DNA of 64,000 bases from Pyrinomonadaceae bacterium (GCA_036387455.1 DASVTS010000050.1:17845-81844); one strand, 5' to 3'. Numbered from the stretch's first letter, positions 1,447-49,881 are shown. Numbers and translations are program-made. Notes: generated from the letters alone by a model not told the origin.

Positions 1447-1522
1447 GGATGAAGGTGAAGGCGGAGGGATGAAGTCCGGACGGCACGCCTTCCGTCCTTC
1501 GTCCTTCCGCCTTCACCCTTCC
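1447..1522. repeat. hairpin built from tandem heptamers (GAAGG-type left arm, CCTTCNN x5 right arm) abutting the Shine-Dalgarno of the 1534 gene
   Basis: The right arm is CTTCCGT CCTTCGT CCTTCCG CCTTCAC CCTTCC (1489-1522). The left arm GGATGAA GGTGAAG GCGGAGG GATGAAG (1447-1474) is its imperfect complement. An inner GGACGG/CCGTCC pair is present. The element ends 1 nt before GAGGAGGG (1523-1530). Confidence 0.7.
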
Positions 1523-1533
1523 GAGGAGGGCGA

Positions 1534-4065
1534 GTGATACGCATCGACATGTCCGACTACGGCCGCGCGGCCGGGGCCTACTGGGCGGCGGTGGTGGCGG
1601 CCGGCGCGGTGGCCCTCGGGTGGGGCGCGTACGCGTGCCTCTCTTACAGCGTGGTGCAGTGGGCGCAGCTCCTCGTCCTCGCCAGCCTCGTCGTCATCTC
1701 GGGGATGCTGCCGGCGCGCATCCCGGGCACGAAGGCCATCGTGACCGCCGGCGACTGCTTCGTCTTCCTCGCCGTCATCTTCCTCGGCGTCCCGGCCGGC
1801 ATCGTCCTCGGCGCGCTCGACCTCCTGACGGGCACGCTGCGCAGTTCGAGCCGCGCGTCGAGCTGGATCGCCATGCCCGCGTGCATGGCCGTCACCGTCT
1901 ACGTCACGGGTCACGTCTTCTACCTCGCGCTCGCGGCGCACGCCGGCGTCGTGCGCCGGCCCGTCGGCGGCGGCCGGCCGCTCTCGCTCGAACAGCTCGT
2001 CCTGCCGCTCGTCCTGATGTCGCTCGCCCAGTACACGGTCAACAGCGCGCTGGTCGCGTGCCTGTTCGCCCTGAAGAGCCGGCGGCCGGTCTGGCGCTGC
2101 TGGCGCGAGAACTACCTGCAAAGCTCCTGGACGTTCTTCGCGGGCGCCTTCGCCGCCGGCCTCGTCTACGTCGCCATCGAGCGGTTCGGGCTGCTCTACG
2201 TCATCCTGAGCGTGCCCGTCGCCGCCGCCACCATCGCCACCTACCGCGCCTACTCCGAGCGCTTCGCCGAGAAGTCGCGCGAGGCCGCCGAGGTCTCGCG
2301 CCTCCACCTCGCCACGGTCGAGGCGCTCGCCACCGCCATCGACGCCAAAGACCAGACGACGCACTTCCACGTCCGGCGCGTGCAGGTCTACTGCGAGCGC
2401 ATGGGCGAGCTGCTCGGGCTGGCCGCCGCCGAAATCAAGGCGCTGAAGGCGGGGGCGCTTCTGCACGACGTCGGCAAGCTCGCCGTCCCCGACCACATCC
2501 TGAACAAGCCGGGGAAGCTGACCGAGGCCGAGTTCGAGCGGATGAAGGTGCACACGACGGTCGGCGCGCAGATACTCGAACGCGTCGCCTTTCCTTACCC
2601 CGTCGTGCCCATCGTCCTCTACCACCACGAGCAGTGGGACGGGCGCGGCTACCCGGAGGGGCTGAAGGGCGAGGAGATACCCTTGACGGCGCGCATCCTC
2701 TCCGTCGTGGACTGCTTCGACTCGGCGCGCGAGGACCGGCCGTACCGGCGCGGGATGACGCCCGAGGAGGCTTGCGCCATGCTCCGGCGCGGCGCCGGCC
2801 GGCACTTCGACCCGCGCGTCGTCGAGGTCTTCATGCGCCACCTGCCGCGCTTCGAGGAGGAGATTACGGCGCAGGGCCTGGACAACCGCGGCCTGACCAA
2901 CGAGGAGTGGGAGCACCGCGACCTGCTGGGCGAAGAGCCCGCGGGCGAGGCGGCGCACGCGTCGGCGTCCCCGCACCGCTCCGACGCCCCGCACTACCTG
3001 AGTCAAATCACGAACGCCCACCGCGAGGTCTACGCGCTCTACGAGATCGCGCGCACCTTCGGGTCGTCGCTCGACATCGAGGACACGGTCTCGGTGCTCG
3101 TCAACAAGGTCGGCCACGTCGTCCCGTTCGACCTGTGCGCCGTCTACCTCTACGACGAGGGGAAGGGCTACGCCACGGCCGCGCACGTCGCCGGCCGGCA
3201 GGCCGAAGTCCTGCGCGGCCGGGCGGTCGCGCCGGGCGAGGGCGTCGTCGGCTTCGTCCTCGCCAACCGGCGTTCGTCGTACCTCCTCGACCCGATGCTC
3301 GACTTCACGGGCGTCGCGCTGCCGGAAGGCTGCACCTTCCGCTCGATGGTCGCGCTGCCGCTGACGAAGGACGACCGGCTGGTCGGCGCCCTCGCCGTCT
3401 ACTCGTCCGAGCCGCGCCGCTACACGGACGACCACCTGCGCCTCCTCGACACGGTGGCGCGCCTCGCGTCGGACGCGCTCGCCAACGCGATGAGCCACGC
3501 GCAGGCCGAGTCGAACGCGCTGACGGACACCCTGACGGGGCTGCCGAACGCGCGCGCGATGTACGTGCGCTACGAGCAGGAGGCGGCGCGCGCGCGGCGG
3601 ACGGGCAAGCCCTTCCAGGTCGTGATGCTCGACCTCGACGACTTCAAGCAGGTCAACGACACCTACGGCCACAAGACGGGCGACCGCATGCTGCGCGAGG
3701 TGGCGCGGATACTACAGGCGCAGCTCAGGGAGTACGACTTCCTCGCGCGCTACGCGGGCGACGAGTTCGTCGCGCTCGTCCAGGACCTGTCGGCCGAGCA
3801 GACCGTCGAGCTGCGCGAGCGCATCGAGCGCGCCGTCTCGCGCTTCTCGCTCCACGTCCGCGGCGACAAGCACGCCCGCGTCGGCATCTCGGTCGGCTCC
3901 GCCTCCTACGGCGTCCACGGCGAGACGCTCGACCAGCTCCTCATCGCCGCCGACGAGGCCATGTACTCCGCCAAGTCCTTCCACAAACAGCGCCCCGCGG
4001 GGGACGCCGCCCCCCAGCCCGCCGAAGTCACGACCGGCGACCTCGCCTCGACGGCCATCAACTAA
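1534..4065 (+). CDS. membrane-anchored HD-GYP / GAF / GGDEF multidomain c-di-GMP signalling protein
   Basis: 843-aa ORF with hydrophobic N-terminal helices. It carries the HD-GYP signature HDVGKLAVP...HHEQWDGRGYP, a GAF-like middle region and a C-terminal GGDEF domain (RYAGDEFVALV). The GTG start lies 4 nt after the GGAGG core. Confidence 0.85.
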   Translation: MIRIDMSDYGRAAGAYWAAVVAAGAVALGWGAYACLSYSVVQWAQLLVLASLVVISGMLPARIPGTKAIVTAGDCFVFLAVIFLGVPAGIVLGALDLLTGTLRSSSRASSWIAMPACMAVTVYVTGHVFYLALAAHAGVVRRPVGGGRPLSLEQLVLPLVLMSLAQYTVNSALVACLFALKSRRPVWRCWRENYLQSSWTFFAGAFAAGLVYVAIERFGLLYVILSVPVAAATIATYRAYSERFAEKSREAAEVSRLHLATVEALATAIDAKDQTTHFHVRRVQVYCERMGELLGLAAAEIKALKAGALLHDVGKLAVPDHILNKPGKLTEAEFERMKVHTTVGAQILERVAFPYPVVPIVLYHHEQWDGRGYPEGLKGEEIPLTARILSVVDCFDSAREDRPYRRGMTPEEACAMLRRGAGRHFDPRVVEVFMRHLPRFEEEITAQGLDNRGLTNEEWEHRDLLGEEPAGEAAHASASPHRSDAPHYLSQITNAHREVYALYEIARTFGSSLDIEDTVSVLVNKVGHVVPFDLCAVYLYDEGKGYATAAHVAGRQAEVLRGRAVAPGEGVVGFVLANRRSSYLLDPMLDFTGVALPEGCTFRSMVALPLTKDDRLVGALAVYSSEPRRYTDDHLRLLDTVARLASDALANAMSHAQAESNALTDTLTGLPNARAMYVRYEQEAARARRTGKPFQVVMLDLDDFKQVNDTYGHKTGDRMLREVARILQAQLREYDFLARYAGDEFVALVQDLSAEQTVELRERIERAVSRFSLHVRGDKHARVGISVGSASYGVHGETLDQLLIAADEAMYSAKSFHKQRPAGDAAPQPAEVTTGDLASTAIN

Positions 4066-4074
4066 AAGCCGCGG

Positions 4075-4132
4075 GCCGTAAGCCGGGAACCGTGATGAGA
4101 AGTCCTTCTCGTCAGGGTTCCCGGTTTACGGC
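4075..4132 (+). terminator. degenerate CCGTRAA-class heptamer hairpin 10 nt after the stop of the 1534-4065 gene
   Basis: The left arm GCCGTAAGCCGGGAACCGTGATGAGAAG (4075-4102) pairs with CTTCTCGTCAGGGTTCCCGGTTTACGGC (4105-4132) across a 2-nt loop with a few mismatches, followed by TTTCGTTCTTCTT. It is sequence-related to the elements at 11679 and 31554. Confidence 0.6.
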
Positions 4133-4307
4133 TTTCGTTCTTCTTGACTTTCCCCCGCCCGGTCGTTTTCAATCGTTTCAGGCGCTCCGGTGTCGGAGGT
4201 GACCTCCCGGCCGGGGCGCCGCCGCCCCGTTTTACAGCCTCAAGCTCCGCCCCGCGGGATGAGCAGCCCCCCGACCCCGCGCAAAGGCTCTCAGTCGTAA
4301 TAAGACG

Positions 4308-48964: not shown

Positions 48965-48965
48965 C

Positions 48966-49187
48966 TTACTCCTCCCCCCGCTGCTCTTCGAGCTCGCGCT
49001 CGCCCTCTTCGCGCAGTTGGCGGCCCTCGCGCTCCAGCTCGGTGTTCTGCGTGCCCTGCGCCACGGACTCGCGCGCGGCGCCTTCGAGGCGCTTCATCTC
49101 GGCCTCGACGCGCCCCTCGACCTCGTCCATCGGCGGTATCTCGCCCGTCTCTTCCTGCGTCACGAATTTGCCCTTCGAGTCTTCCAT
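48966..49187 (-). CDS. hypothetical small acidic protein
   Basis: 73 aa, MEDSKGKFVTQEETGEIPPMDEVEG...EEQRGEE. Codons are GC3-rich and consistent with the host. No family was recognised. Confidence 0.5.
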   Translation of the reverse strand: MEDSKGKFVTQEETGEIPPMDEVEGRVEAEMKRLEGAARESVAQGTQNTELEREGRQLREEGERELEEQRGEE

Positions 49188-49391
49188 CGCGGTTCACCTC
49201 TTCAGATTCCGAAAGATTGCTAAGGGGGTTTTGAGGCTGCATCCTCTCATCCCGCGCGCCCCGCGGTCAAATCGTTTGCCCGCCCCGAGCCGCTTGTCTT
49301 ATACTCGCGCGCGAACCGAGCCGCCGTGCCCCTTTGCCTCACCGGCCTCAGGCGCCGCCGCCTCGGAACATGACCCGGAGGTTCCCCCGAA

Positions 49392-49841
49392 ATGTCCGAC
49401 GACATCCGCCGCCTGATTAAGAACGGCCAAGAGACCATCGTCCGCACCTGGACGGAGAAGGTGGCCGCCGACCGCCGCGTCGCCTCGGACGAGAGGCTCT
49501 CCTACCTCCAGCTCGTCGACCACATCCCGCAGATCGTCGAGGAGCTGCACGACGCGCTCGGCGGCGGCCGGAGCGAAGAGCCGTCGGCGCTCTGCGAGGG
49601 CCGCGAGCACGGACGCCAGCGCTGGCGCCAGGGCTACGAGCTGAAGGAGGTCGTCCGCGAATTGACGCTCCTGCGCGTCACGCTCGTCGAGTTCATCGAG
49701 CTGTACCGCGGCGCGCTCCCCGCCCGCACCCCCGACGAGCTGACCCGCTCCTTCCACCGCATCAACGTCTTCATGGACGACGAAATCTACCGCACCGTCG
49801 AAGCCTACCTCGACGCCTCCCGCAACCCGCAGGCGAACTGA
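49392..49841 (+). CDS. hypothetical regulator-like protein (RsbRD N-terminal-like helical domain)
   Basis: 149 aa. IVRTWTEKV...LVDHIPQIVEELHDAL...HGRQRWRQGYELKEVVRELTLLR resembles the N-terminal sensor domains of RsbR/histidine-kinase-like proteins. The assignment is tentative. Confidence 0.5.
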   Translation: MSDDIRRLIKNGQETIVRTWTEKVAADRRVASDERLSYLQLVDHIPQIVEELHDALGGGRSEEPSALCEGREHGRQRWRQGYELKEVVRELTLLRVTLVEFIELYRGALPARTPDELTRSFHRINVFMDDEIYRTVEAYLDASRNPQAN

Positions 49842-49843
49842 CC

Positions 49844-49881
49844 GGAGGACGAAGGCGGAAGGATGAAGGGTGAAGTGAAGG
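49844..49881. repeat. solo GAAGGNN heptamer run related to the 1447-1522 element, spanning the copA start codon
   Basis: The run is GGAGGAC GAAGGCG GAAGGAT GAAGGGT GAAGTGA AGG. It shares GAAGGCGGAAGGA(C/T)GAAGG with the reverse complement of the right arm at 1489-1522. Only a short possible partner (CCCCTTCATCC, 49893-49903) lies downstream. Confidence 0.6.

Follow-up and report, generated by a model that had tools for sequence, protein, structure and literature searches.

Hairpins with heptanucleotide-repeat arms at gene 3' ends in Pyrinomonadaceae: candidate families of small dispersed palindromic elements in the place of terminators

Background

Among the kinds of periodic DNA in the intergenic regions of prokaryotes, tandem heptamers are reported to be the most abundant, with "no clear clue" as to what they do (Mori 2018, PMC6344855), and according to the summary of Mrazek 2007 in PMC4679880 heptanucleotide repeats are the most abundant long simple sequence repeat (SSR) in most prokaryotes, for which slippage and contact with the polymerase have been suggested. 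The TAACTGA repeats of Beggiatoaceae (PMC4679880) and the heptanucleotide repeats of the cyanobacterium Calothrix, as cited in PMC4692102, are particular cases. Xanthomonas has about 185 arrays of GGGAATC, each with 2 to 26 copies; some 90% are intergenic, and they lie on average 28 nt from the upstream open reading frame (ORF) and 160 nt from the downstream one, with few between divergent genes; 70-75 convergent inverted pairs are capable of forming stem-loops, and repeat length varies between species with the repeat type retained (Rehm et al. 2015, PMC4692102). We describe here hairpins whose arms are tandem 7-nt units and which lie at the 3' ends of genes in a 64,000-nt stretch of DNA from a Pyrinomonadaceae bacterium (GCA_036387455.1, DASVTS010000050.1:17845-81844); this whole stretch is called the window below. 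Full-text literature searches, which included the Pyrinomonas and Chloracidobacterium genome papers, found no such elements described in Acidobacteria.

REP sequences, with which these hairpins must also be compared, are often located at the 3' ends of genes, where they make mRNA more stable and can bring transcription to an end. A REPIN consists of two REPs in inverted orientation that form a hairpin, and REPINs are linked to RAYTs (Bertels & Rainey 2011, PMC3116915).

Heptamer-armed hairpins adjoin stop codons in the window

Inverted repeats in the window were located by a repeat search, by Tandem Repeats Finder (TRF) and by direct reading of the sequence, and the RNA fold at each locus was compared with 200 shuffles. 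Hairpins whose arms consist of 2-5 tandem 7-nt units are confirmed at six loci, 4075-4132, 7810-7906, 11676-11768, 31555-31674, 45307-45373 and 48846-48967 (Table 1), and the TRF arrays at 11680, 11738, 31560, 31613, 45342, 48849 and 48929 are all made of head-to-tail 7-nt copies. The hairpin at 36051-36142, which a first-pass annotation of this DNA had called an 8-nt variant at 36054, indeed has CACAGAGR arms of that period. Folding energies of the window hairpins range from -46 to -79 kcal/mol and their z-scores from -5 to -13, and 0 of 200 shuffles were equally stable.

The first-pass annotation had proposed ten loci that share one design and begin within 0-15 nt of a stop codon. The six heptamer hairpins and the 8-nt one fit this description, and the feet of these seven (listed there at 4075, 7810, 11679, 31554, 36054, 45307 and 48851) lie 0-13 nt from real stop codons. 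The other four of the eleven positions listed there are misfits. The one at 1447 is a hairpin (1454-1517) that is only weakly periodic and precedes a GTG start, and the one at 25593, credited with related GAAGGNN content, is a hairpin with no heptamer periodicity. The "solo" GTAGNNN arm at 16567 does contain three CTACNNN units but folds into no hairpin, and the solo arm at 49844, listed under GAAGGNN/CCTTCNN, is an AAGGNNG heptamer run with a short 10-bp partner and a marginal z-score of -2.8.

Excess over chance and the special status of seven

The leucyl-tRNA synthetase (LeuRS) gene of the window (36152-38809, minus strand) is 82-89% identical to those of Pyrinomonadaceae metagenome-assembled genomes (MAGs; Acidobacteriota, Blastocatellia), and its exact protein is present on a JGI soil-metagenome contig; an SLT protein of the window is assigned in NCBI to a Pyrinomonadaceae MAG. 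We sampled 80 LeuRS loci of relatives, each with 10 kb of flanking DNA on either side; as these were picked by protein and not by repeats, the sample is unbiased with respect to the latter. Together with the window it amounts to 1.43 Mb (L-numbers below denote loci fetched from relatives or metagenome contigs). A search of this DNA for inverted repeats of 18 or more matched bp gave 218 hairpins, whereas a first-order Markov control gave 3; 192 of the 218 are intergenic. When an arm is called periodic at an autocorrelation of at least 0.7 over lags 3 to 12, the 192 intergenic hairpins include 60 with lag 7, 11 with lag 8 and none with any other lag. Tandem arrays of periods 6, 7, 8 and 9 number 133, 168, 22 and 12, respectively, in 1.45 Mb, and those that have an inverted partner within 150 nt number 4, 103, 13 and 0. 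Heptanucleotide SSRs elsewhere are described mainly as direct arrays, often upstream of start codons, whereas here at least 103 of the 168 are inverted and paired around a loop, at stop codons; of the "solitary" heptamer arrays that were read, many prove to be hairpin halves with degenerate partners. The density under the strict criterion is 3-8 per 100 kb in all LeuRS identity bins from 89% down to 64%, and since it is similar in every bin the hairpins are a trait of the clade and not of one genome. The earlier proposal of an additional heptamer layer at gene 3' ends is upheld as real and non-random.

The claim that unit sequences differ completely between classes is only partly true, since many of the 45 distinct units are related: CAGT occurs in 10 of the 45 against 1.1 expected, TCAG and GTCA, like CAGT, are strongly enriched, and TGAA is enriched as well. 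In this the units resemble the cyanobacterial STRR units CCCCAGT, CAACAGT and TTGGTCA. The TAACTGA repeats of Beggiatoaceae (PMC4679880) are similar too. The elements share with heptanucleotide SSRs in general the favoured period of 7, the intergenic location, a proposed slippage origin and CAGT/ACTGA-type units. With the Xanthomonas arrays they share convergent same-unit arrays that lie close together and nearer the end of the upstream ORF; there, however, a single G-rich unit with quadruplex potential is involved, and here there are 45 distinct, mostly non-quadruplex units, several classes per genome, aperiodic cores, nested ordinary terminators and class replacement at orthologous sites, in the phylum Acidobacteriota. 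Most units have no G-runs. Across all periodic hairpins the 5' arms are G-rich and C-poor (33% vs 13%). An Rfam search of the window gave only a tRNA-Thr at the gathering threshold, and at E<=1 only sub-threshold eukaryotic miRNA-precursor look-alikes, on both strands. The first-pass annotation, which recognised no described repeat family here, is right as regards the sequences, but the kind of element has been published (the heptanucleotide SSR excess, Calothrix, Xanthomonas GGGAATC), and what we describe is a multi-class, terminator-embedded form, in another phylum, of heptamer-array phenomena already in the literature.

Position and anatomy

Periodic hairpins occupy 26 convergent, 35 tandem and 7 divergent spacers, where the background is 96, 391 and 120 (chi-square p = 2e-5), so that convergent spacers are enriched, as had been suggested from the window, and divergent ones depleted. 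Within tandem spacers, 28 of the 35 periodic hairpins lie on the side of the stop codon (p = 5e-4). Periodic hairpins have their foot a median of 4 nt away from the stop, aperiodic ones 19 nt. Of the 8 nt just outside each foot, about 36% are A on the upstream side and about 37% are T on the downstream side, and the arms have a GC fraction of 0.45, compared to 0.62 for the host DNA. Stems span 20-40 bp (median 26 bp for periodic ones), and the loops tend to be long (median 34 nt, compared with 13 nt); in 28 of 71 periodic hairpins the loop itself folds into an inner hairpin, and several of these read like ordinary terminators. Periodicity is not concentrated at the base of the stem (basal 0.79 vs apical 0.80).

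Like Rho-independent terminators, then, these hairpins lie just past stop codons, at the ends of transcription units or between convergent genes, they have A-tract-stem-T-tract symmetry, and at one orthologous site such a hairpin stands in place of a canonical terminator. They differ in that the canonical shape (a short GC-rich stem, a loop of 3-8 nt and a U-tract next to the stem) is replaced by long AT-rich stems and loops, the T-tract is often absent, and the sequences are repeated around the genome. Ordinary GC-hairpin terminators coexist with them in the window, as the first-pass annotation had said; those at 34258, 55708-55752 and 59131-59186 and the inner hairpin 7832-7881 were all found. 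A consensus terminator scan gave no excess of canonical terminators over shuffles. Pairs of uptake sequences inside terminators were reportedly described by Kingsford et al. in 2007.

The classes are dispersed families

An aperiodic core is common to all three CCGTRAA copies of the window. When metagenomes were scanned with the periodic part alone, about 25 high-GC contigs were recovered that carry one coherent element: (A)AAG, (CCGTRAA)n, CCGTGAC-RAGA, a variable loop, TCTY-GTCACGG, (TTYACGG)n, CTTTT. In 26 copies the units are always accompanied by the core GTGAC-RAGA...TCTY-GTCAC, the aligned copies have a mean column identity of 92%, and the unit order GAA-GAA-AAA-GAC recurs among them. 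The loops, by contrast with this stem, vary from 8 to 51 nt, and no two are alike among the 26 copies read. Of copies chosen in this way, by sequence alone, 22 of 25 adjoin the end of a coding-like ORF and the other 3 are at contig ends. The GTAG class behaves similarly: a composite of GTAG arms and a GGCGGCGCG terminator is found at 7810 in the window, at the LeuRS site of five relatives, in the spacer at the redoxin gene in both L005 and L015, and at 21863 in L004, so that it has no fewer than four different loci. The GGCAAAA class of the window recurs in L048 and, at another site, in L017, and four copies of one class occur within single loci of 11-22 kb (L025, 22 kb; L044).

Recurrence of classes with shared aperiodic parts at non-orthologous 3' spacers implies a copying step between spacers. 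The classes are dispersed, conserved families and not independent inventions, and the first-pass idea that unrelated sequences had converged on one architecture is not supported, in view of the shared CCGTRAA core and the GTAG composite. Its suggestion of slippage in a 7-nt register as the generator fares better, but slippage alone is insufficient to place identical 30-90 nt modules at non-orthologous sites.

Inverted CCGTGAA-type arrays that lack the family core are also present on contigs L082, L092, L101, L119, L127, L132 and L159, some of them surrounding GC-rich inner hairpins. These contigs have very different GC fractions (0.40-0.67), so the architecture is probably not restricted to Pyrinomonadaceae.

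Replacement at orthologous spacers

The site 3' of LeuRS has a long hairpin in nearly every relative, but the unit class varies by lineage. It is CACAGAGR in the window as well as in L010 and L011; GTAGNCA arms enclosing a GGCGGCGCG terminator in L002, L005, L007, L012 and L014; GGTTCATC in L003, L004, L006 and L008; GCGAGCGGTA in L009 and L016; GACGGGGA in L017; GTCCGTT/GTCAGTG in L022 and L025; AAGGATG in L029; and GAAGGCA in L031. At least seven other unit classes thus occupy, in relatives, the site orthologous to 36051-36142. The class likewise differs among relatives in the T2SSE-to-kinase and redoxin spacers, and at the 45307 site, after the T2SSE ATPase gene, relatives have other classes or plain GC hairpins. 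When genomes with a DNA identity of about 91% are compared, the aperiodic terminators prove to be conserved and to carry compensatory changes, and the periodic hairpins change unit number or class (L040 vs L043, L022 vs L025). An all-against-all BLAST comparison of the related loci gave an uninformative indel spectrum because alignments break at the replaced spacers.

The spacer between the SLT transglycosylase and M49 peptidase genes is the most instructive. All 15 relatives examined there (75-87% protein identity) keep an ordinary terminator, GAGGGCGGGGCTYCGGCTCCGCCCT, and only the window has a CCGTRAA hairpin followed by TTTTT; the downstream promoter region is conserved. In this comparison the CCGTRAA hairpin is the derived state and has taken over from a canonical terminator; this replacement is the strongest indirect evidence for terminator function.

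Two further observations concern these spacers. Within 31663-31691, the last TTCACG of the heptamer arm is 17 nt upstream of the conserved TATGAT -10 sequence of the M49 peptidase gene, at a position where relatives have TTGCGC, and the incoming element may have supplied this gene with a new -35 box. Also, a second, aperiodic palindromic repeat family (GCGCATACGATTCCCATGCGTGGG...) is found in one spacer in several close relatives, sometimes as multiple tandem hairpins (L003 8309-8530, L005 8343-8381, L015 about 7537).

Unit number and pairing of the arms

The arms were said to hold 2-5 heptamers in unequal numbers, and the larger sample agrees, since 29 of 73 hairpins have arms that differ by at least 5 nt. 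The 3' arm is the longer in 20 and the 5' arm in 13, which is not significant. In a small sample of orthologous same-class hairpins, L003 and L004 differ by one unit, L022 and L025 by two, and L002, L005, L007 and L014 have 3-5 units; such differences fit slippage. The only other assemblies of this organism, JGI 3300034026 and ENA ERZ27253063, are identical to the window at the hairpins and so gave no strain-level polymorphism in unit number. The closest SLT homologues are only 87% identical, and the one 99%-identical pair, L207/L208, has no hairpin in the shared stretch.

Covariation shows that the two arms are kept paired. Position 5 of the CCGTRAA unit alternates between G-C and A-U, with the change mirrored in both arms, and there are 29 double-change cells where shuffles give 15.4 +/- 2.8 (0 of 500 shuffles reach 29).

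Duplication can take in an entire arm, core included (about 35 nt), as seen at 31555-31674 in the window, at 9833-9931 in L091, and in L094, L104 and L158. The result is a three-arm element, with two 5' or two 3' arms, that has alternative pairings.

What the elements may be

The reading that we prefer, and to which we give an even chance of being correct, is that these are families of small, dispersed, REP/REPIN-like palindromic elements that in Pyrinomonadaceae stand where a terminator would, at the 3' ends of genes, and whose arms change by heptanucleotide slippage. Such an element consists of an A-rich flank, a 5' arm of 2-5 units of 7 (sometimes 8) nt, often a family-specific aperiodic core, a variable loop that often holds an ordinary small hairpin, a mirror-image 3' arm and a T-rich flank. 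When transcribed it would fold into a 20-40 bp stem and act as a terminator, often a bidirectional one, and as a protective stem-loop at the mRNA 3' end, functionally standing in for a canonical GC-rich terminator. Its arms appear to gain and lose whole units by slippage, through the same bias that lies behind the commonest long SSR of prokaryotes, with pairing between the arms retained as units change. Whole elements appear to spread to non-orthologous 3' spacers and displace the resident hairpins, and the mechanism could be REP/REPIN-like mobilisation or ectopic gene conversion between palindromes. Transcription termination with 3'-end protection, usually in both directions, is the most likely function.

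Several points weigh against this proposal. We infer termination from position and from the replaced canonical terminator, yet at least 4 T's are present in the 8 nt after the stem in only 14 of 35 cases (40%), and a simple hairpin-plus-T-tract scan misses these elements because their loops are too long. The ratio of sense-strand G.U to A.C mismatches, 28:20, is not significant, so it gives no direct sign of selection at the RNA over the DNA level. The CCGTRAA stem is invariant or nearly so, apart from unit position 5, across many metagenomes, and this conservation exceeds the needs of a purely structural terminator. With regard to movement, there is no transposase among the scanned window genes, a crude screen of low power for the HUH...Y..NP motif found no RAYT-like ORF in 2.1 Mb of related sequence, and the orthologous spacers compared show neither a target-site duplication nor a clean-edged empty or filled site; the replacements take out the whole spacer. 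Finally, the proposal leaves the period of 7 unaccounted for.

The strongest competitor, though we think it unlikely, is a purely local origin, in which an ordinary terminator grew in place by 7-nt slippage of its complementary A- and T-rich flanks, the arms being held paired by selection or by templated repair within the hairpin, and nothing moved. The inner hairpins in 28 of 71 loops, several of them readable as ordinary terminators, are what such growth would leave behind, as are the low arm GC, the short stop gap and the variable unit numbers of orthologous copies; moreover, the TTTTGCC array of L017 runs into a flank, CTTTTGCC, that is conserved in all relatives. Growth in place does not explain why identical multi-unit arms and aperiodic cores are found at non-orthologous loci in many genomes, or why a specific unit order such as GAA-GAA-AAA-GAC recurs, and in the SLT spacer the resident terminator is gone, not enclosed. 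The swapping of classes between genomes about 91% identical also speaks against it.

A somewhat smaller chance attaches to the idea that the elements are true REPINs or MITEs (transposable elements of the miniature inverted-repeat type), non-autonomous DNA moved by an enzyme encoded elsewhere (a RAYT-type Y1 or other transposase) for which the heptamers are binding or cleavage sites. They resemble REP, BIME and REPIN sequences in being extragenic and multi-copy with a master sequence, in forming a long hairpin from an inverted doublet whose spacer is less conserved than the arms, and in having several families per genome with lineage-specific dominant classes, which fits the description of REPINs (PMC3116915); the arm conservation beyond what pairing requires is also as expected. 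On direct reading, however, the arms are direct heptamer arrays without an internal inverted repeat and not imperfect palindromes of 20-40 nt. The terminal inverted repeats with target-site duplications and clean filled and empty sites that define MITEs were not seen at the orthologous spacers, the window genes and the HUH/Y motif screen (of low power) offered no candidate enzyme, and more than 45 unit classes would require many enzymes or one very tolerant one.

More speculative, and with a rather slim probability, is the notion that the arms are made at terminators by a mutational process linked to termination, with a separate copying step that spreads successful hairpins. As one candidate process, a segment of 7-8 nt at the hairpin base, the length of the RNA:DNA hybrid or U-tract that remains when RNA polymerase terminates, would be duplicated repeatedly, and terminators would grow outward unit by unit on both sides up to the stop codon. 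This would yield periods of 7 and 8 only, AT-rich units, ordinary terminators in loops and a 4-nt stop gap, and would make 7-nt repeats the commonest intergenic periodic DNA across prokaryotes.

It is improbable that the units are chiefly iterated sites for an oligomerising nucleic-acid-binding protein, with the hairpin secondary, and a single dedicated protein as the common reader entertained in the first-pass annotation is unlikely in view of at least 45 distinct units and several classes per genome. Candidates would be proteins of the ribbon-helix-helix type, whose sites are 7-bp heptads or 8-bp met boxes, and HutP, which binds UAG-N4 repeats. Cold-shock-type OB folds bind about 7 nt each (PMC4679880). 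Periods of 7 and 8 only, arm sequence kept at all positions but one, the enrichment of CAGT and TGAA and the identity of GTAGNNN with UAG-N4 would all suit such proteins. But there are at least 45 distinct units, with several classes within 64 kb and rapid class replacement at one site, the mirrored covariation means that pairing matters, the location is at 3' ends and not at promoters or 5' untranslated regions, and no candidate gene is linked to the elements. In a direct reading of the units themselves, a HutP-like UAG-N4 reader, or stop codons in all three frames, fitted only some classes and was set aside as their explanation.

Chance low complexity, an assembly artefact, or G-quadruplex or phase-variation SSRs of the kind proposed for Xanthomonas can be put aside as very improbable: heptamer SSRs are indeed common in many bacteria (PMC6344855, PMC4692102), but the Markov control yields 3 hairpins to the 218 observed, the sequence is identical in independent JGI and ENA assemblies and the architecture is shared by MAGs of many projects, most units lack G-runs, and a position after the stop codon misfits promoter or ORF switching.

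Individual elements and other features of the window

Genes in the window, whose GC content is 70% over its whole length, were mapped from codon-position GC and cross-checked with JGI gene calls and Pfam. The hairpins have ordinary chromosomal neighbours, namely genes for a sigma-54 activator, histidine kinase, AMP-binding enzyme, 4HBT thioesterase, GalT, SLT transglycosylase, M49 peptidase, EamA, LeuRS, PilT-like ATPase, Ser/Thr kinase, redoxin and P-type ATPase. The individual features are collected in Table 1.

Table 1. Periodic hairpins, arrays and aperiodic hairpins in the window (strand "." where none is assigned)
Position	Strand	Feature	Evidence
1454-1517	+	Weakly 7-periodic hairpin, GAAGGNN / CCTTCNN units	TRF 68-70% matches; -53 kcal/mol, z -5.0
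4070-4137	+	Diverged CCGTRAA-family copy, core GTGATGAGAAG..CTTCTCGTCAG	-53.9 kcal/mol, z -8.7
7806-7906	.	Composite: GTAGNNN arms around GC-rich terminator	-61.8 kcal/mol, z -9.6
9371-9404	-	Aperiodic terminator-like hairpin	Repeat search
11676-11768	-	CCGTRAA-family copy around core GTGACRAGA	-67 kcal/mol, z -12.6
16566-16597	.	Solo array CTACCGG CTACTGA CTACTG	No hairpin, z -0.7
21269-21445	.	Putative related element, about 9 copies of 21-nt (3 x 7) unit ATCGTGATTGCAAGCYTT.., both orientations	-112 kcal/mol, z -13
25593-25685	.	Aperiodic, very stable hairpin, 40-nt arms	-79 kcal/mol; best lag 12, 0.44
31555-31674	+	CCGTRAA-family copy, three arms (one 5', two 3')	Repeat search, TRF, folding
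34258-34290	.	Ordinary aperiodic GC-rich hairpin, 14 bp, perfect	Repeat search
36051-36142	.	8-nt periodic hairpin, CACAGAGR	25-28 bp, 96-100% paired; -67 kcal/mol, z -12.8
45307-45373	+	AGGGGCT / AGCCCCT hairpin	2 units in 5' arm, 4.6 units in 3' arm
48846-48967	.	GGCAAAA/GTAAAAA vs TTTTGCC hairpin	About 4.4 vs 5.4 units; -68.5 kcal/mol, z -9.9
49846-49907	+	AAGGNNG heptamer run, 10-bp partner GGATGAAGGG / CCCTTCATCC	Marginal hairpin, z -2.8
55708-55752		Aperiodic terminator-like hairpin	Repeat search
59131-59186		Aperiodic terminator-like hairpin	Repeat search

The CCGTRAA copies are placed as follows. The element at 4070-4137 begins 5 nt past a TAA (4063-4065) and has T-rich sequence behind it. 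That at 11676-11768 has 5 units in one arm and about 3.5 in the other; the stop codon (11752-11754) of the AMP-binding gene (11752-13305, minus strand) is inside one of its arms, and the 4HBT thioesterase gene starts 2 nt from its other foot. The three-arm copy at 31555-31674 lies 2 nt past the SLT transglycosylase TAA (31551-31553) and is flanked by AAAAG and TTTTT. In the 7806-7906 composite the outer arms (7810-7830 and 7884-7906) enclose the inner GC-rich hairpin, an ordinary bidirectional terminator of the form A6-stem-T5 (7826-7886); the composite fills the convergent spacer between the sigma-54 activator gene, whose stop TAG (7811-7813) is within the first GTAG unit, and a TPR gene (7914-9332, minus strand). 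The solo array at 16566-16597, of the same unit class as these arms, is in a convergent spacer of 33 nt.

The 8-nt periodic hairpin is in the convergent EamA/LeuRS spacer, with stops at 36040 and 36152. The 45307-45373 hairpin is 5 nt past the TGA (45299-45301) of the gene for the PilT-like T2SSE ATPase and has TTTGCTTTTGCC behind it, and that at 48846-48967, which contains two small inner hairpins, begins at the redoxin TGA (48844-48846) in a convergent spacer. The aperiodic hairpin at 25593-25685 adjoins the stop of a minus-strand gene (25686-26672) and is not a heptamer element, and the run at 49846-49907 overlaps the start of the P-type ATPase gene. The element at 21269-21445 fills the convergent spacer between NAD-epimerase and short-chain dehydrogenase genes and is perhaps related to the heptamer hairpins, with a longer period.

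The weakly periodic hairpin at 1454-1517 precedes an HD-GYP/GGDEF-type gene (1534-4065) by 17 nt, the start codon being GTG. It has no verified stop codon adjacent and comes directly behind a GC-rich hairpin (1379-1431) that ends in TTTT (1379-1439). It is in a region of nearly 1 kb (564-1533) without an ORF having coding-like codon-position GC, where Rfam has no match; this region could encode an RNA that is not annotated, or could be what is left of a gene that has decayed. Coding tandem repeats are also present, at 34473-34638 (66-nt period, in a 208-aa protein of unknown function), at 46883-47108 (24- and 120-nt periods, in the Ser/Thr-kinase/FGE-sulfatase gene) and at 58467-58778 (K/A-rich, 12-48-nt periods, in a 199-aa protein beside the tRNA-Thr gene at 58036-58111, minus strand).

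Conclusions

The unexplained excess of 7-base repeats in bacteria is here tied to the ends of genes. In this clade the heptamers have a sharp anatomy and an address, in that they form the paired arms of long hairpins that lie at stop codons in the place of terminators, and there are many classes of them with quick turnover. The elements would mark transcript ends that standard terminator predictors overlook; they reach into stop codons and, between close relatives, provide hypervariable markers. Why seven, and what the repeats do, thus become testable questions in an abundant soil phylum.

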